A stretch of DNA of 64,000 nt from Escherichia coli (GTDB lineage: Bacteria > Pseudomonadota > Gammaproteobacteria > Enterobacterales > Enterobacteriaceae): NCBI RefSeq assembly GCF_003334765.1, contig NZ_QOWT01000002.1; one strand, 5' to 3'. Every line of letters begins with the position of its first letter. The stretch's first letter is position 1. The notes below the pieces were generated by a model. The model searched no databases, had not been told where the DNA came from, and saw nothing but the letters and a program-made list of their open reading frames with translations. Shown piece after piece: positions 42,208-54,000 of the stretch. Position numbers and translations under genes: made by a program.

Positions 42208-42903
42208 TTAATAAAGCAGTGAACCAAGCAGACCGATACCAGCACCGATACCAGCACCCCACGGAGTTGATGAACCAATTAATTTCGCAAGTCCAGCCCC
42301 AGCAATAGCACCAGACGCACCTCCGCCAATAGCAGATTGCATTGCTGATGGTCTGTTGGCATTTGCCGCTGCAAGAGCCGCACTTTGCTGCGAAATCTGA
42401 CTCATGTTGTTGGCATATGTCTGCCCGGCGTTTGCCTGACCTTGCAGTGCGCCAAGACCAATATTTGCCAGATTCTGGTAGTTGTTCATCTGACCAGATA
42501 GCCATTGCTGACCAAGCGTTGGTGCGATTGTTGCTAACTGATTACCGGTTGCAGTGGAACCCAATCCACCTGTTGCTTCCGCTGCCGCCAGACTCTGATA
42601 GCGAGCCTGACCAGCAAGATCTTTGTACTGCTGAGAGTTGTAATACTGGTTAAGTGCCTGACCTTGCCCTTCCAGAGACGATAAGTTCTCGAGGCTGCCG
42701 ACATACTTATCAGCCAGAGGAGTAAACGGCTTCAGGTTGTTCATGATGGTGTTGAACTGCTGATTTTGCAGGTCTGCGGCATACTTCTGAGCTTCTGCTG
42801 CATACTTTGCGCTTTTATCAGAACTGCCACCTTTCCCGCCTTTTTCAGGGCAATAAGGTTCCTCGCCGCGCAGTTTTCTGCCCAGCTTAAATGCATATAA
42901 CAT
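42208..42903 (-). CDS. P22 gp7-like ejection protein
   Basis: 231 aa from internal Met (MLYAFKLGRK) of a 460-aa ORF; Gly-rich hydrophobic C-terminus. Confidence 0.5.
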   Translation of the reverse strand: MLYAFKLGRKLRGEEPYCPEKGGKGGSSDKSAKYAAEAQKYAADLQNQQFNTIMNNLKPFTPLADKYVGSLENLSSLEGQGQALNQYYNSQQYKDLAGQARYQSLAAAEATGGLGSTATGNQLATIAPTLGQQWLSGQMNNYQNLANIGLGALQGQANAGQTYANNMSQISQQSAALAAANANRPSAMQSAIGGGASGAIAGAGLAKLIGSSTPWGAGIGAGIGLLGSLLY

Positions 42904-43590
42904 GGCTAACGCCGAGATGCCGTATTGCGCATAGCTCATACAATCAATTTCGCCTTCGCAAAGTACAACCGCCCTCACGCCAGCGTCCAGAGCCTGCCAT
43001 CCGAACAGACAAGGTTCGCAATCACCTTCTGCCATAATGACTTTCTTCCCGTCCGGGCGCTCAGTGCTGATTCGCTTGACCTGCAACAACTCACCATCGC
43101 GTTTGTACGGAATCACCAGAGCATCCAGTTCTCGCTCTCCATTCCACACCTTGCCGCTGACAACCTCGTAGCGCTTTACGATTTCTGGCGATATGCCACG
43201 CGATTGCAGGTACTCAAGATGGGATTCTGTTCTGGTAACGTAGCGGGCGATTTTCTTGCGATCAGGTCTGGAGAATTTCTTCTCACGTCTGGCATCGAAA
43301 TGGTGATCGTCATCCTTGATACCGAGAAATGCTTTCGCTTCCTGCATAGCCTGATGCAGGTTAATTCCACGACATGCCATCCACAAATCAAGCATGTCAC
43401 CGCCGTCTCCCTCAGCGAAATCAGCCCATTTTTTCTTGCCGCTAAGGTTGACCTTAAGGCTGTTTCCCTTGTCACCGTTGACGTTACCGGCAACCCACTC
43501 ATGCCCCTCTTTCTTGCCGTTTGGCAACAGGTGCGGAGCCACCCTGTCAACCTGCGCCCAAAGCAGGTCGCTAAGTTCACTTGGCGTCAT
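42904..43590 (-). pseudogene. truncated DNA primase fragment (toprim), reads in frame into gp7-like gene
   Basis: 229 aa ending VVLCEGEIDCMSYAQYGIS (DnaG-like toprim EGxxD...AQYGI), no helicase/C-terminal part. Confidence 0.55.
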
Positions 43591-46155: not shown

Positions 46156-46524
46156 ATGGTTGGAACCGCTATAGCAAGCTTTTTGGGGATGTTGGCAATC
46201 TCAACAATTTACGGCTTAGCGCATGCTTTTATTGCGAAATCTCTATCAGAAAAAATAAGCCAGGCTTGGGCGCATAGATCAGCTCGTTTCATGATTCTAG
46301 TGGTCATAGCAATACAAGGGATATCTGCATTTATCCTCTATGGATCAAGCTTATACCTGTTGTATCAAGGAGCGACATTTACGCCTTACACCAGTGATTA
46401 CGGAACTCTATACGATGGTAGTGAAGACATCTCTATGGCTTGGATCGTCTTTGGTTTATCTATGGCCGTGTCTGTTGTAGCAGACATCATTAAGGTAATT
46501 CTCGTCTTAACCTTCGCTGACTAA
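46156..46524 (+). CDS. small 4-TM membrane protein in rexB-equivalent position
   Basis: 122 aa, four hydrophobic segments, RBS aagggggg, starts 20 bp after cI stop. Confidence 0.55.
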   Translation: MVGTAIASFLGMLAISTIYGLAHAFIAKSLSEKISQAWAHRSARFMILVVIAIQGISAFILYGSSLYLLYQGATFTPYTSDYGTLYDGSEDISMAWIVFGLSMAVSVVADIIKVILVLTFAD

Positions 46525-46891: not shown

Positions 46892-47188
46892 ATGATAATC
46901 GTTACTTATCTGGCTGATGATAACACCAGAAATCGCCGCAGAGCACGCAGACAGGCTCAACGTGAACAGGCAATGCAAGAACAGCGACTTGCGCGAAAAA
47001 TTGCGCTAAAGCTCTCTGGTTGCGTCAGAGCAGATAAAGCAGCATCACTCGGAAGCCTTCGCTGCAAGAAGGCAGAAGAAGTCGAGCGTAAACAGAACCG
47101 TATTTACTACCGCAAGCCACGCAGTGAAATGGGTGTGACTTGTGTTGGTCGCCAGAAAATGAAATTAGGCAGCAAACCACTTATTTGA
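46892..47188 (+). CDS. N: N-like antiterminator
   Basis: 98 aa; Arg-rich motif TRNRRRARRQAQREQ; C-terminus GVTCVGRQKMKLGSKPLI parallels lambda N. Confidence 0.85.
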   Translation: MIIVTYLADDNTRNRRRARRQAQREQAMQEQRLARKIALKLSGCVRADKAASLGSLRCKKAEEVERKQNRIYYRKPRSEMGVTCVGRQKMKLGSKPLI

Positions 47189-47196
47189 GGTGAGAT

Positions 47197-47667
47197 ATGA
47201 CAAAATCATGGAGCGTACCTTTTCCTGAATCAGAAACTGAACATGATGGAATGCCTGTTTTCTGGAGATTCCAAGCGACAGTTGAAGAAGATGGAATCAA
47301 AATATTCGCACTTCAATATATAGCTTTTCATCAGACAGAGCATTATGCATGGTTGGTTCCTGCGCATTGGATTGTTGATTTTAAACCAGCACCAAATCAG
47401 TGGTTACAGGAATGGAAACAAAAGAGAAATAGATATGCAATTAAGAAAGTAGCAAAAAATGCAGAAAGATCTTTTGCATTCCCAACGAAGAAACTTGCCA
47501 TTGAAAGTTTATTGCGCCGGAAGAAATACCATTTAATGAGAATAAAACAAGATTTGGCTGTTGTATCAACTCTTGTTGATGGGATGAAAAATATTGATAC
47601 ATCAACACCAGATATTGAATATAACTTTGGACACAACCAAGAAACAGAAAATTGGGTATTTTATTAG
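47197..47667 (+). CDS. hypothetical protein (moron after N)
   Basis: 156 aa soluble, AT-rich, good RBS. Confidence 0.5.
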   Translation: MTKSWSVPFPESETEHDGMPVFWRFQATVEEDGIKIFALQYIAFHQTEHYAWLVPAHWIVDFKPAPNQWLQEWKQKRNRYAIKKVAKNAERSFAFPTKKLAIESLLRRKKYHLMRIKQDLAVVSTLVDGMKNIDTSTPDIEYNFGHNQETENWVFY

Positions 47668-47864: not shown

Positions 47865-48392
47865 TTGATAGGATATAAAATGGCATTTATAAAGATTCTT
47901 GAATTAATTTCCCTAAGTGAGATTAATAATGTTGTCAAATATAACCCTATTTCTGGTGAGTTCACATGGCTAAAATCTTATGGAGCAAGAAAGATAGGTG
48001 GAACTGCCGGAACAATAACAACAAGCGGCTACTTAAGGATTTTCATTAACGGAAGACACTATGCTGCACATAGACTTGCATGGATTATCACTTTCGGTGT
48101 TGAGCCTGAAGGTATTATCGACCATATAAATGGCATAAAGACAGATAACAGAATTTGCAATCTGAGGCTTGCAACTTACTCACAGAATTCAATGAATAGT
48201 AAAATAAATACCCTCAACAAATCAGGTTGCAAAGGAGTCACATGGAAGAAGGAAAGTAGAAAGTGGGCTGCCTATGGGAAATTAAACGGGAAGAAAAAAC
48301 ATCTAGGGTACTTTAATGAATTAGAAGATGCCAAAAAAGCTTACTGCGACTTTGCCAGAAAGCATCACGGCGAATTCTACAGGAGCAAATAA
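47865..48392 (+). CDS. HNH endonuclease with AP2-like DNA-binding domain
   Basis: 175 aa; IDHINGIKTDNRICNLRLAT HNH motif; GVTWKK...YGK..GKKKHLGYF AP2-like. Confidence 0.75.
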   Translation: MIGYKMAFIKILELISLSEINNVVKYNPISGEFTWLKSYGARKIGGTAGTITTSGYLRIFINGRHYAAHRLAWIITFGVEPEGIIDHINGIKTDNRICNLRLATYSQNSMNSKINTLNKSGCKGVTWKKESRKWAAYGKLNGKKKHLGYFNELEDAKKAYCDFARKHHGEFYRSK

Positions 48393-48526
48393 TGAATGAA
48401 TATATTTTAGCGGGTAGCGGCGTCATGTCCGCTTTCTACCCGCACGAATCTGAATTATCACGCCGAGTTAAACAATTAATCAGAGCAGCAAAGAAACAAC
48501 TGGAGGCGTTATGCGCAATGAAATAG
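48392..48526 (+). CDS. cIII: CIII-like protein
   Basis: 44 aa; YILAGSGVMSAFYPHESELSRRVKQL parallels lambda CIII core. Confidence 0.6.
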   Translation: MNEYILAGSGVMSAFYPHESELSRRVKQLIRAAKKQLEALCAMK

Positions 48527-48663
48527 CCATTAATCACCAGATGCTTCGTGCTGCACAGAACAAAGCAGTAATAGCCAGATTTATTGGTGATTCCAAAATG
48601 TGGCTTGAAGCAAATAAAGCGATGAAATCAGCTATCAACCTTCCGTGGTATCGCAGGAAATGA
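48511..48663 (+). CDS. Kil-like small protein (tentative)
   Basis: 50 aa; IARFIGDSKMW resembles lambda Kil; follows cIII as in lambda. Confidence 0.4.
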   Translation: MRNEIAINHQMLRAAQNKAVIARFIGDSKMWLEANKAMKSAINLPWYRRK

Positions 48664-48744
48664 GTTTTACAGATAACTGGTCAGACGAAGAATTCATTCG
48701 TCAGATGAACAAAATGCTCAATCAGCACAAAGAACAGGAGAAAG

Positions 48745-49056
48745 ATGATGATTCTGACTCTGAATGATAAGCGTGAAATATCGCAAATAATCGCAAGTTT
48801 TACTGATGAAGATTACGAGCGAATCAACAGTGAAGTTGATCGCCTCTGCAAACGTTGCGACCCAATAAGCGAAATGCTTCGCTCATATAAACCAGATGAA
48901 CACACTAAGGACGCTATCGACTGGCTGGAAGATGATGACTGTAACTATCAGGAAAAAGCCGCTGAATGGTTCTGGGATGCAATAACCGAAAGAGTTAAGG
49001 CTGAATATGCCTTCGCAATATTTAAACGCAGACACATTTTTGGAGAAGCTGCATGA
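48745..49056 (+). CDS. hypothetical protein (gam/abc-equivalent position)
   Basis: 103 aa acidic, immediately upstream of recT. Confidence 0.4.
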   Translation: MMILTLNDKREISQIIASFTDEDYERINSEVDRLCKRCDPISEMLRSYKPDEHTKDAIDWLEDDDCNYQEKAAEWFWDAITERVKAEYAFAIFKRRHIFGEAA

Positions 49057-49955
49057 GCAATATCGTTGAATTCGTTAAACAGCAAGAGCAGTTATTCTGC
49101 GGAGCATTGACTGAACAGACGGTGACATGGGCTAAGGAAAGCCAGTTTGCAATTCAGTATTTCCAGAAAAACGATTACCTGGCTAAAACAGCACTGGCAA
49201 ATCCAACCAGCGCACAGAACGCCATCATCAATGTTGCGGCGATCGGCATCACCTTAAACCCGGCCAGCAAACTGGCTTATCTGGTTCCTCGCGACGGCAT
49301 GGTGTGCCTTGATATCAGTTACATGGGATTACTTCACCTTGCACAGTCGACAGGATCAATTAAGTGGGGGCAATGCAAACTGGTGTACTCAAACGACACC
49401 TATGAATCAAACGGCCTTGATTCAGCACCAACCCACAAATACAACGCATTTGGTAAGCGAGGCTCTATTGTTGGTGGTTATTGTACGGTTAAAACAGCAG
49501 ATGGTGACTACCTCACTGAAGAAATGAGTCTGGCAGAAATTAAAGCTGTGGAAGCAACGAGCAAGGCAAAGAATGGACCGTGGAAGACATTCTGGGAAGA
49601 GATGGCGCGTAAAACAATAGTTAAACGCGCCAGCAAATACTGGCCTAAAGCCCAGCGACTGGATAATGCCATTCACCTGCTTAACGAAGATGAAGGTATG
49701 CATCAGGAACCAGTTATGCCGCACAAATCAGAGGAAGATATCCGCGAAGATGAACGGAAACGCCAGCAGGAAATTATGGAAAAAGCACAACTTCTTTGTG
49801 ATGAAATGGCTCAGGCAGAAAACATGGATGATTTGAAGCGATATTTTGCAGAAGCATATCGCCTGACATCTGGAATGAAATTGCAGCAGAACGTACAAGC
49901 CATTTACATAGAATGCAAAGCGAAACTGGAGGTTGCCAGTGAGCAAACTGTATGA
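49053..49955 (+). CDS. recT: RecT-family single-strand annealing protein
   Basis: 300 aa; SKAKNGPWKTFWEEMARKTIVKRASKYWP matches RecT signature region. Confidence 0.8.
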   Translation: MSNIVEFVKQQEQLFCGALTEQTVTWAKESQFAIQYFQKNDYLAKTALANPTSAQNAIINVAAIGITLNPASKLAYLVPRDGMVCLDISYMGLLHLAQSTGSIKWGQCKLVYSNDTYESNGLDSAPTHKYNAFGKRGSIVGGYCTVKTADGDYLTEEMSLAEIKAVEATSKAKNGPWKTFWEEMARKTIVKRASKYWPKAQRLDNAIHLLNEDEGMHQEPVMPHKSEEDIREDERKRQQEIMEKAQLLCDEMAQAENMDDLKRYFAEAYRLTSGMKLQQNVQAIYIECKAKLEVASEQTV

Positions 49956-50421
49956 AATTGCCAATGAATACGCAAAATTGATGGATTCAGATTTAGAACC
50001 AGAGATGATTGCTGACACAATAGAAGGCATGGAAGGAGAATTTACCGATAAAATAGAGCAACTTCTTTCCGTCATTAAAAATGAATCTGGTTATGCTGAA
50101 CGCCTCAAGGAAGAGGCAAAGTCACTGAATGAGCGAGCCGCAGTAATTCAAAATAAGATTGACAGCATCAAATCATATATAGCGTCATCGCTTGAAATGG
50201 TTGGCAAGAAAAATATTCGAGCAGGTATTCACCAGGTAACAATCCGCAAACCGTCAGAAACTGTAGAAATCATCGACTCAAGCGCCCTTCCTCCTGAATA
50301 CCTTGAGTTTGAAACGACAATTAAAGCCGACAAACTGGCAATCAAGCACCAACTAAAAGCAGGAATAAATATTCCCGGTGCTCAACTCAAGGTTGGGAAA
50401 CCTTCACTTCTTATCAAATAA
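49933..50421 (+). CDS. Gp157-like protein
   Basis: 162 aa coiled-coil-rich, downstream of recT. Confidence 0.45.
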   Translation: MPVSKLYEIANEYAKLMDSDLEPEMIADTIEGMEGEFTDKIEQLLSVIKNESGYAERLKEEAKSLNERAAVIQNKIDSIKSYIASSLEMVGKKNIRAGIHQVTIRKPSETVEIIDSSALPPEYLEFETTIKADKLAIKHQLKAGINIPGAQLKVGKPSLLIK

Positions 50422-52674: not shown

Positions 52675-52875
52675 ATGCAACACGAACTACAGCCTGATTC
52701 ACTGGTTGATTTGAAATTCATCATGGCCGATACTGGCTTCGGTAAAACCTTCATCTATGACCGGATTAAGTCCGGCGACCTGCCAAAAGCCAAAGTTATC
52801 CACGGGCGAGCAAGATGGTTATATCGTGACCATTGTGAATTCAAAAATAAGCTCTTAAGCCGCGCCAATGGGTAA
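52675..52875 (+). CDS. torI: excisionase / tor operon inhibitor TorI
   Basis: 66 aa Xis-like winged helix at prophage end adjacent to dsdC. Confidence 0.85.
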   Translation: MQHELQPDSLVDLKFIMADTGFGKTFIYDRIKSGDLPKAKVIHGRARWLYRDHCEFKNKLLSRANG

Positions 52876-53058: not shown

Positions 53059-54000
53059 TTATGAAGTGGTTTTTACCTGTTCTCTTAGCCAGATAATAAA
53101 CGCTTCAATTTTTGGCCACTGCCTGCCCGGTAATGTGGTGATGTAATAATGCTGATGGCATTTCACCGTCATATCGCCAAACGGCGCGACGAGCTCACCA
53201 CTGGCAAGCCTTTTTTGTACCAGGCGTTTTCTTCCCATCGCCACCCCAATATGATTCATCGCGGCAATAACAGCTAAATCAGAACGATCAAAGCCAATTC
53301 CAGAAGATGTCGGCAAATTAACCGCATAATGTTGCGCCCAACTATGCCATTCATCCGTACCGGAGTCGTTGCTCCATGCCTGTCTGTCATGGAGCAACGT
53401 ACAGTGACACAGGTTAATTACCGTGTTGGTTAAAGCATGTCTTTGAGCGTATTCCGGGCTACATACTGGCAGGATTTCTTCATCCATCAGAAAGTGATGA
53501 GTGAGTTGCGCTGACGGCGCATCATCAAAGTAGATCGCCAAATCGATTCCGGCACGTTGCAGATTGACGTTGTCATTACCAGTGAGCACGGTGAGCGAAA
53601 TAGACGGATACCGGCGTGTAAAGTCACCTAATGCGGGCACCAACCAGCATTGGGCGATAGAGGGCCGGGAATACAGAGTTAACGTTCCCGATAACTCCTG
53701 ATTTTTGATATCAAGAATTTCCTGGTTCAGGGTATCCAGCGACGATTTTAGCGCCCAATAAACACGTTTCCCCTCGTGCGTTAATTCCACTTTGCGATGG
53801 GAACGAACAAACAACTGAATGCCCAATTCTTCTTCCAGCTGATTGATACGGTGACTTACCGCACTGGGGCTCAGCGACAATTCCTCTGCCGCCAGGGCGA
53901 AGGACTGATGCCTGGCAGCCACTTCAAAAGTATGCATTTTTGATAATTGCCAGCCGTTAAGCAGCCGATTTCTTATTTCACGAAGGGGTTCCATAATCAC
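53059..54000 (-). CDS. dsdC: LysR-type regulator of D-serine utilisation
   Basis: 313 aa LysR HTH plus substrate domain, divergent from dsdX. Confidence 0.85.
   Translation of the reverse strand: MIMEPLREIRNRLLNGWQLSKMHTFEVAARHQSFALAAEELSLSPSAVSHRINQLEEELGIQLFVRSHRKVELTHEGKRVYWALKSSLDTLNQEILDIKNQELSGTLTLYSRPSIAQCWLVPALGDFTRRYPSISLTVLTGNDNVNLQRAGIDLAIYFDDAPSAQLTHHFLMDEEILPVCSPEYAQRHALTNTVINLCHCTLLHDRQAWSNDSGTDEWHSWAQHYAVNLPTSSGIGFDRSDLAVIAAMNHIGVAMGRKRLVQKRLASGELVAPFGDMTVKCHQHYYITTLPGRQWPKIEAFIIWLREQVKTTS

Follow-up and report, generated by a model that had tools for sequence, protein, structure and literature searches.

The genes at positions 48,660–50,421 of the window, the 64,000-nt (64-kb) stretch of Escherichia coli DNA analysed here, form the recombination ('Rec') module of an early-left (PL) operon with the translationally coupled order orf35 - orf102 - recT - gp157. 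The host element is a defective, deleted Kapi1-like P22-type prophage integrated at argW, and the module itself is unremarkable: nuclease-free lambdoid recombination cassettes of this kind have been catalogued before. A recombination and anti-RecBCD module, as put forward in the initial annotation, is still the best functional reading, which we infer from a protein in gam position with a predicted GamS-like fold (Orf102) and a bona fide Gp157 protein. We assign a probability of roughly 0.6 to the explanation that this nuclease-free module would block RecBCD, cap DNA ends and anneal strands, while relying on the host for resection.

Three plus-strand open reading frames were described initially and were found again at 48,745–49,056 (103 aa), 49,053–49,955 (300 aa) and 49,933–50,421 (162 aa). 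All three match conserved families and are not chance ORFs. The first most likely starts at its second ATG (48,748), giving 102 aa rather than the 103 aa obtained from the ATG at 48,745, since the homologues are 102 aa long, the PHROG match pairs 2–103 with 1–102, and a GGAG lies 6 nt upstream. For the third, the most likely start is the GTG at 49,939 (160 aa), because all homologues have 160 aa with an M-S/T-K start and a GGAGG is located 6 nt upstream; the TTG at 49,933 is a mechanical ORF start. The module hence comprises orf102 (48,748–49,056; phrog_3486, 3.7e-59), recT for a RecT-family single-strand annealing protein (SSAP) of 300 aa (49,053–49,955; PF03837, 9.5e-33; phrog_148, 2.9e-91) and a gene of the Sipho_Gp157 family (49,939–50,421; PF05565, 2e-37; phrog_253, 5.4e-54). 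The orf102 stop and the recT start overlap in an ATGA (49,053–49,056), and the 3' end of recT overlaps gp157 by 17 nt, an arrangement typical of translational coupling. A conserved acidic ORF of 35 aa (MSFTDNWSDEEF...DDDSDSE; 48,660–48,767, plus strand; net charge -7; phrog_17766, E 5e-16) is ATGA-coupled to kil and overlaps the orf102 start. It was found in 74 of 80 related IMG/VR loci, and its Kapi1 counterpart is annotated as Kapi1_014. [quoted passage not shown] A PHROGs scan of the 14 early-left ORFs from N to xis yielded no match to an exonuclease family; the sole nuclease-type match in the operon was an HNH homing endonuclease at 47,865–48,392. In a tblastn search of the window with lambda Exo, four YqaJ and two phrog_7838 exonucleases, the best E-value was about 0.2. 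Kapi1 is a close relative whose complete genome carries no exonuclease annotation; no SSB family was found among the PL ORFs. Profile searches of both neighbours of RecT revealed no exonuclease domain in either. A two-component recombinase of SSAP and 5'-3' exonuclease (lambda Red, RecET, YqaJ/YqaK) was rejected because no exonuclease adjoins the SSAP gene, as was an exonuclease elsewhere in the prophage, where none was found. A nuclease hidden in Orf102 or Gp157 was likewise dismissed: neither matches a nuclease family, and structure prediction gave a helical bundle for Orf102 and a coiled coil with a small beta domain for Gp157.

The RecT assignment is based on PF03837 over residues 31–214 (i-Evalue 9.5e-33) and a match to the PDB RecT 7ub2 (8.6e-5). 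Family membership suggests that the protein anneals ssDNA and forms oligomeric filaments. Residues 4–217 are 57% identical to phi80 RecT, whereas the C-terminal tail beyond the annealing core (residues 217–300; 49,701–49,952, plus strand) shows no similarity to the tail of the Exo-paired phi80 RecT. All 24 phage records with this tail (24/24) also hold the proteobacterial Gp157 subfamily. In Pantoea phage PdC23, the same tail is found on an SSAP with an Erf core (56.5% identity over 46 aa, E 3.6e-15). The tail thus accompanies Gp157 even where the annealing core is that of Erf, and may therefore serve as a dock for Gp157. This candidate docking domain is new here and comes from computation. 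Most of this association reflects inheritance as a single block, with PdC23 as the only clearly independent event.

The protein encoded downstream had been described as Gp157-like rather than a nuclease, and it proved to be a bona fide Sipho_Gp157 member, matching PF05565 (2e-37) over model positions 1–162 of 162. Its PHROG family, phrog_253, is labelled 'Mu Gam-like end protection'. The predicted structure (pLDDT 85.5) features a long helix (23–89) followed by a beta domain. When compared with Mu Gam by hhalign, Gp157 gave a score of 30.3 over 120 collinear columns that span the Mu Gam helix as well as its beta domain (probability 34%, P 4.2e-4), while shuffled scores were 12.8 ± 2.7 and none of 100 column shuffles reached 30.3. 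The low-diversity A1 against a single Mu Gam sequence yielded an E-value of 0.046, and the match was better once both sides were diversified. The homologue in Pseudomonas phage Orisa03 matches the Mu-Gam-like phrog_2205 (E 0.024). Neither Pfam nor HMMER gave a Phage_Mu_Gam match for Gp157, PDB sequence searches with Gp157 profiles returned coiled-coil noise only, and a fold search with the Gp157 model did not retrieve Mu Gam, so that no fold in common with 2p2u (Mu Gam) or with the Ku core was recovered. Foldseek against BFVD retrieved mainly unnamed Gp157-like proteins; weak, suggestive matches to extra domains of PD-(D/E)XK or COG5377 exonucleases were also observed. The 'host-nuclease inhibitor' of Bacillus phage 031MP004, considered as a bridge to Mu Gam, is simply a Sipho_Gp157 protein.

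Compared to Mu Gam (Ku-like DNA end-binding, PF07352; PDB 2p2u homologue), Gp157 has a similar length and the same succession of a long N-terminal helix and a beta domain. It differs in being acidic (pI 5.4), Mu Gam being near-neutral (pI 7.8), and in being encoded within SSAP modules instead of the early region of transposable phages. In Firmicutes phages, Gp157 - Erf/Sak4 - SSB modules contain the same Pfam family adjoining an SSAP gene (PMC8093625). There, Gp157 is encoded upstream of the SSAP, followed by SSB, whereas here it is encoded downstream of RecT, with no SSB and with a Gam-like gene upstream. According to the same study, one and the same position beside SSAP genes is occupied by Mu Gam, Gp157, DUF1351 or DUF2483. 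In Orisa03 and Vibrio phage D79, Gp157 is encoded directly beside real exonucleases, so that it cannot simply be regarded as standing in for an exonuclease.

The alternative that survives best, although we regard it as rather unlikely, is that Gp157 does not bind DNA but serves as an adaptor. As a coiled-coil dimer, it would load or regulate the SSAP, or else recruit a host nuclease or SSB, and 'MuGam' would be an over-annotation. This view is countered by the 120 collinear columns aligned well above shuffled controls, by the shared domain order and length, and by a 2025 Genome Research survey (PMC12315714), in which several Rec-module proteins were assigned by AlphaFold 3 folds and Gp157 is grouped with MuGam. 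In that survey, the Gp157 homologues of HK140 and HK639 are classed as MuGam-type anti-RecBCD proteins; HK639_38, there called MuGam, is 62.5% identical to Gp157 of the window. Besides, adaptor and end-binder roles are not exclusive. Literature searches on Gp157 with RecT or Gam, and on Kapi1 with RecT, returned nothing functional.

Among inhibitors of the host nuclease RecBCD, lambda Gam is the classic case. As assumed from the outset, orf102 occupies the gam position: the order N - cIII - kil - X - SSAP - Y equals lambda N - cIII - kil - gam - bet - exo, with orf102 directly upstream of the SSAP gene and downstream of kil and cIII. The predicted model of Orf102 is a helical bundle of about 100 aa, as is characteristic of Gam, and the most similar fold is that of lambda GamS. 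For Orf102, this predicted Gam-like fold is the one modestly new point. Size and charge are comparable as well: Orf102 has 102 aa and a net charge of -9 (pI 4.65), GamS 98 aa and -10, and GamL 93 aa and -7. All 32 members of the Orf102 family are acidic (-4 to -13), so that the bulk charge agrees with that of a DNA mimic. A local motif, DDDCNYQEKAAEWF against DDDVEFQERAAEFI of Gam, was aligned by hhalign over 25 columns (P 0.0011, probability 20%); the match is far above column-shuffled controls and beats all shuffles. The full-length match to phi80 GamL is weak (P 0.013, probability 3%).

HMMER detected no similarity between lambda Gam (PF06064, phrog_259) and Orf102. Nine diverse family members matched neither phrog_259 nor the GamL family phrog_1050 even at E ≤ 10, but only phrog_3486. 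In a Pfam scan at the same threshold, the sole match of Orf102 was to HJURP_C (E 0.14), which was rejected as spurious. A word-indexed homologue search with Orf102 found close relatives only; members with 29–50% identity required a full HMMER scan. The N-terminal motif AYLxxDRIE common to Gam and GamL (also given as AYLxYDRIE) is absent in Orf102, whose N-terminal helix is split into two shorter ones in the prediction. In Gam, it is the N-terminal helix that plugs the channel of RecB (PMC5218532).

Phage Dewey carries lambda Gam in the slot upstream of SSAP - Gp157, KO-TP1 and HK639 carry GamL there, and Kapi1, HK140, mEpX1, PA-1 and PdC23 have an Orf102-family protein. In Pseudomonas phage 15b, the family ORF is located about 1 kb upstream and is not directly adjacent. 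Homologues of orf102 keep this slot before unrelated partners (Redbeta-like + YqaJ, phrog_21613 + YqaJ, an ExoVIII-like nuclease), which points to a target in the host and not to a partner within the module. It is unlikely, somewhat more so than the adaptor role of Gp157, that Orf102 is instead an accessory or regulator of recombination proteins (cf. P22 Abc1, Arf) or an inhibitor of another host nuclease (e.g. SbcCD), its Gam-like fold being a convergent small helical bundle. A partner-specific accessory is hard to reconcile with a slot kept before at least five different downstream partner sets. Elsewhere, this slot is filled by two proven RecBCD inhibitor families; the motif similarity exceeds every shuffle, and the family is uniformly acidic, as expected of a DNA mimic.

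Least probable of the three alternatives weighed here is that the cassette is a silent relic with no present role, its frames intact through recent deletion and not selection: the prophage lacks nin, Q, lysis and head genes, carries a fusion ORF of a primase N-terminus and an ejection-protein C-terminus (42,208–43,590) and has an intact cI repressor, so that PL is normally off, but all four cassette genes are full length and, at 95–100% identity, match their counterparts in viable phages, activation is known for Rec modules of cryptic prophages (e.g. Rac recET), and the objection concerns expression in this host, not protein function. As the prophage is defective, the module may indeed be rarely expressed. 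Kapi1 is a viable phage with this exact module. Among 5,426 complete E. coli genomes, 265 contain the same cassette, as do phages HK140, mEpX1 and Kapi1, and HK140 is catalogued in PMC12315714; the view that RecT has unusual partners here is thus not sustained. Chi sites are absent from the prophage and from Kapi1. Their absence is not significant alone, because chance alone would place about 1.2 sites in 39 kb, but it is consistent with the anti-RecBCD class as described in that survey.

In the same survey, 84 of 246 lambdoid Rec modules are listed as lacking a nuclease, and the HK140 module is given as SAP-4 + MuGam with neither nuclease nor SSB. The module of the window agrees with the HK140 type in its near-identical genes (Orf102 99% and Gp157 95% identical to the HK140 proteins), in operon position with the same kil - X - RecT - Gp157 order, and in the lack of a nuclease and of an SSB family. 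The text of the survey counts only Gp157/MuGam of HK140 as anti-RecBCD and leaves the 102-aa gene without assignment, whereas here it is predicted to encode a third Gam-fold family.

Compared to lambda Red (gam - bet - exo), the operon position and order after N, cIII and kil and the overlapping genes are the same, with a small acidic protein of (predicted) Gam fold first and the SSAP second. The third gene encodes the 5'-3' exonuclease Exo in lambda and Gp157, without any nuclease, in the window; the SSAP is of the Redbeta type in lambda and of the RecT type here. Phi80 (JX871397) has the order kil - gamL - rec(RecT) - exo (Rotman et al. 2012, cited in PMC12315714). Again, a small acidic inhibitor, the RecBCD/SbcCD inhibitor GamL, is encoded directly upstream of RecT, but Exo follows downstream, the RecT tail is different, and GamL (phrog_1050) and Orf102 (phrog_3486) are connected by a weak profile match only. 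The P22 abc2/abc1 - erf module, from the same virus type (Lederbergvirus), also combines an annealing protein with an anti-RecBCD function without phage nuclease or SSB (Table 1 of PMC12315714). Erf and Abc2 have no sequence relationship to the proteins described here, and Abc2 acts by binding RecC and modifying RecBCD, not by obstructing the DNA site of the enzyme.

Taken together, we favour the nuclease-free module outlined at the beginning. [quoted passage not shown] Gp157, encoded where relatives have Exo or YqaJ, would be a coiled-coil dimer with a C-terminal beta domain, a distant relative of Mu Gam that binds double-strand ends. Its probable docking site is the C-terminal tail of RecT, so that the annealing protein would be brought to the ends. 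RecT would anneal complementary single strands. As the module has no nuclease of its own, host nucleases or helicases, or else replication forks, would have to supply the ssDNA, as in the P22 class (Abc2 + Erf), which is likewise nuclease-free. A broader combination is offered only tentatively, at somewhat below even odds: phrog_3486 as a third, hitherto unrecognised Gam-fold family of RecBCD inhibitors, the SSAP tail as a portable Gp157 dock, and Gp157-mediated end-targeting in place of an exonuclease. In this combination, the Orf102 family would be interchangeable with Gam and GamL across RecT, Redbeta, Erf and ExoVIII modules, and the docking module would be the C-terminal tail of about 45 residues.

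With this locus, a catalogued type of nuclease-free lambdoid cassette gains one further copy, located in a decayed prophage. The gain in annotation is that a 'hypothetical protein' of hundreds of E. coli genomes and several model phages is probably a RecBCD inhibitor of the Gam class. The co-inheritance of RecT tail and Gp157 provides a testable handle on SSAP-partner matching, which is relevant to porting recombineering systems between hosts. If Orf102 does belong to the Gam class, HK140-type phages would have two anti-RecBCD candidates, as HK639 has, and SEN22-type phages one, and the published classification of both types would change. Retron Ec48 is a defence system that senses RecBCD inhibition. 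The same applies to Gabija (PMC12407980). Orf102 would then be a candidate trigger or licence for defence systems of this kind.

The region from 46.9 to 52.9 kb on the plus strand is a lambdoid early-left (PL) operon, and PHROG scans gave its gene order. An N-like antiterminator gene (46892-47188) is followed by a phrog_1636 gene without assigned function (47197-47667), a gene for an HNH/AP2-type homing endonuclease upstream of cIII (47865-48392), cIII (48392-48526), kil (48511-48663) and the genes for a conserved, very acidic protein of 35 residues (orf35, phrog_17766; 48660-48767), a protein of 102 or 103 residues (orf102; 48748- or 48745-49056), RecT (49053-49955) and Gp157 (49939- or 49933-50421). 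A D5-like regulator gene, Ead/Ea22-like and DUF551-type genes and the excisionase gene (52675-52875) come next; cI, cro, cII and an O-like replication gene lie to the left of the operon. Inspection of the DNA revealed ATGA overlaps at kil/orf35 and orf102/recT, an overlap of the orf35 end with the orf102 start and 17 nt shared by recT and gp157. The starts ATG 48748 and GTG 49939, both with GGAG or GGAGG 6 nt ahead, are preferred over the mechanical starts because the homologues have 102 and 160 residues. orf35 was found in 74 of 80 related loci, and candidate counterparts, judged by size and place, hold the same position in the distant relatives L004, L005 and PA-1. In related phages, HNH genes are found elsewhere in the module; those of Louie and PdC23 separate the annealing protein (SSAP) gene from the Gp157 gene. 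This pattern suggests repeated homing into Rec modules.

The initial annotation had described three ORFs at 48745-50421 as a RecT without an obvious cognate exonuclease, a small acidic protein upstream and a Gp157-like protein, not a nuclease, downstream, and this description was borne out. RecT matched PF03837 (9.5e-33) and phrog_148 (2.9e-91). Profile searches with the flanking proteins, the check proposed at the time, returned no exonuclease family: the downstream protein matched Sipho_Gp157 end to end (2e-37) and also phrog_253, labelled 'Mu Gam-like end protection' in PHROGs, and orf102 (pI 4.65, net charge -9) had phrog_3486, a family of unknown function, as sole match (3.7e-59) and no domain in a Pfam search. 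PHROG scans of the PL-operon ORFs yielded no exonuclease family match, and when lambda Exo, four YqaJ proteins and two phrog_7838 exonucleases were compared to the full 64 kb by tblastn, the best E value was about 0.2. The remaining genes of the element encode integrase, acetyltransferase, tailspike, Ant and ejection proteins, and no exonuclease is annotated in the viable phage Kapi1.

The element (32271-52966) lies at argW, a tRNA-Arg(CCT) gene (32271-32345) followed by a P4-type integrase gene, and blastn against Kapi1 identified it as a Kapi1-like, P22-type Lederbergvirus with attP between int and xis. Flanking host genes, which we take to be dsdC- and dsdX-like, start at 53059. The window copy passes from the ejection-protein region (about 28.5 kb in Kapi1) directly to the replication genes, and a minus-strand ORF at the junction (42208-43590), which marks the deletion point, combines the N-terminus of a primase (residues 1-228) with the C-terminus of an ejection protein (230-458). 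The deletion thus covers nin, Q and the lysis and head genes and leaves a defective prophage. A hexapeptide-repeat acetyltransferase gene between int and the tailspike gene (33857-34528) may be an O-antigen-modifying moron, and a hydrophobic-looking protein of 122 residues (phrog_6534; 46156-46524) is encoded between cI and N, a place recalling rexB or sieB.

Matches to the 1.9-kb cassette (orf35, orf102, recT, gp157) were obtained in 1,132 of 5,426 complete E. coli genomes, with coverage of at least 80% in 265 and about 98% identity in the best-matching ones. Phages with the cassette include HK140, mEpX1, Kapi1, 683R2, 611R6, Gally and Louie, among others. Among 80 IMG/VR loci with near-identical Gp157, 75 feature orf102, RecT and Gp157, two have a lambda-type Gam as replacement, and none has Exo or YqaJ within 4 kb. 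A survey of 325 lambdoid phages (Genome Res 2025; PMC12315714) describes Rec modules as combinations of SSB, nuclease, SAP (annealing protein) and anti-RecBCD functions, the last of four types (Gam, GamL, Abc2, MuGam), with nuclease absent from 84 of 246 modules. For 'SAP sequence type 4', the partners given there are MuGam without a nuclease (HK140), Exo plus GamL (phi80) and GamL plus MuGam (HK639) (PMC12315714). HK639_38, the MuGam of that survey, is homologous to Gp157 and shares 62.5% identity with the window protein. The order 'RecT without exonuclease, then Gp157' had therefore already been catalogued. The partners, initially called unusual, thus form a common and published arrangement. 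In Firmicutes phages, as an independent paper notes, Mu Gam, Gp157, DUF1351 and DUF2483 genes take one common position beside SSAP genes (PMC8093625).

A full HMMER scan with orf102 gave about 30 full-length clusters of 29-52% identity, and the model built from their alignment (A2) is confident and all-helical (pLDDT 90.6, pTM 0.76). In a profile-profile comparison with the lambda Gam alignment, DDDCNYQEKAAEWF pairs with DDDVEFQERAAEFI in the same register (P 0.0011); the score was 23.1, compared to 10.9 ± 1.9 in column-shuffled controls (0/100 reached it). The same stretch is the best tblastn match of lambda Gam in the whole window, which is not significant alone. Similarity to phi80 GamL is weak and full-length (17.4 vs 10.6 ± 2.1 shuffled; 1/100 reached). 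All 32 family members are acidic, as are GamS and GamL, and Gam acts as an acidic DNA-mimic dimer (PMC5218532). The HMMER searches found no link of orf102 to Gam or GamL, and the N-terminal motif common to these two is absent from orf102. The slot directly upstream of SSAP-Gp157 is held by lambda Gam in Dewey, by GamL in KO-TP1 and HK639, and by an orf102-family protein in the window, Kapi1, HK140, mEpX1, PA-1 and PdC23; in Pseudomonas phage 15b, such an ORF is located about 1 kb upstream, not adjacent. Distant homologues precede Redbeta-like plus YqaJ, phrog_21613 plus YqaJ, or an ExoVIII-like nuclease (Salmonella phage SEN22). That the slot is kept regardless of the partner set points to a host target. 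We regard orf102 as a probable Gam-like RecBCD inhibitor, with a chance of roughly two in three. Neither strand of the prophage (32346-53058) or of the 39.4-kb Kapi1 genome contains a Chi octamer (GCTGGTGG), which agrees with the anti-RecBCD class and is not significant alone; the flanking host DNA of the window has six.

The Gp157 model (pLDDT 85.5, but pTM 0.45) has two helices, the first short and the second of 67 residues, followed by a small beta domain. Using diversified alignments and a Mu Gam query that matches the phage Mu record in every residue, hhalign aligned 120 collinear columns spanning the helix and the beta domain (score 30.3 vs 12.8 ± 2.7 shuffled; 0/100 reached), and one Gp157 homologue touches the Mu-Gam-like phrog_2205 (E 0.024). 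The pI of Gp157 is 5.4 (acidic) compared to 7.8 for Mu Gam. A Mu-Gam-like end binder is, by a modest margin, the favoured role. Gp157 is present in 606 phage records: upstream of Erf-SSB in Staphylococcus phage DW2, downstream of Sak-like, Erf or RecT proteins, and directly after a real phrog_7838 exonuclease in Pseudomonas phage Orisa03 (L093 2261-3498) and Vibrio phage D79 (L095 2097-3363). Given these varied contexts, Gp157 serves Rec modules as a general accessory and does not strictly replace a nuclease. Weak profile and fold matches tie Gp157 to non-catalytic parts of RecE-like or PD-(D/E)XK phage exonucleases, a hint that some nucleases include a fused Gp157-like domain.

The RecT of phi80, where Exo is the partner, is 57% identical to the window RecT over residues 4-217, but the tails beyond are unrelated. 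The tail (residues 217-300; 49701-49952) was detected by tblastn in 24 phage records, all within the 27 with the proteobacterial Gp157 subfamily. Gp157 lies immediately downstream in the records examined, except for Pantoea phage PdC23 (L106 1908-3483), where an Erf-core protein (phrog_155, 1.2e-52) carries this tail (E 3.6e-15, 46 aligned residues at 56.5% identity), with an orf102-family gene upstream and Gp157 downstream past an inserted HNH gene. This co-occurrence is mostly block inheritance, PdC23 being the only clearly independent case. The Redbeta C-terminal domain binds lambda Exo. Structures 7UJL and 6M9K are cited for this in PMC12315714. By analogy, the RecT tail is plausibly a Gp157-docking domain.

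The best-supported reading takes the cassette as a Rec module that lacks a nuclease and belongs to the P22 functional class; the initial proposal of a recombination or anti-RecBCD module is supported. RecBCD would be neutralised by the predicted Gam-fold protein orf102, and DNA ends would be capped or marked by Gp157, which would recruit RecT via its tail. RecT would then anneal single strands, supplied by the host or by replication forks.

While the arrangement is common and published, the analysis adds two computational and testable points, a predicted Gam fold for phrog_3486 and the link between the RecT tail and Gp157. In SEN22 (L105 3498-5196), a 95%-identical orf102 gene is located directly upstream of the genes for the ExoVIII-like nuclease (phrog_412) and a phrog_11517 protein. 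PMC12315714 does not count orf102 as anti-RecBCD: MuGam is the only gene of this function listed for HK140, and none is listed for SEN22. Should the predicted Gam fold prove right, this class of SEN22 would need revision.
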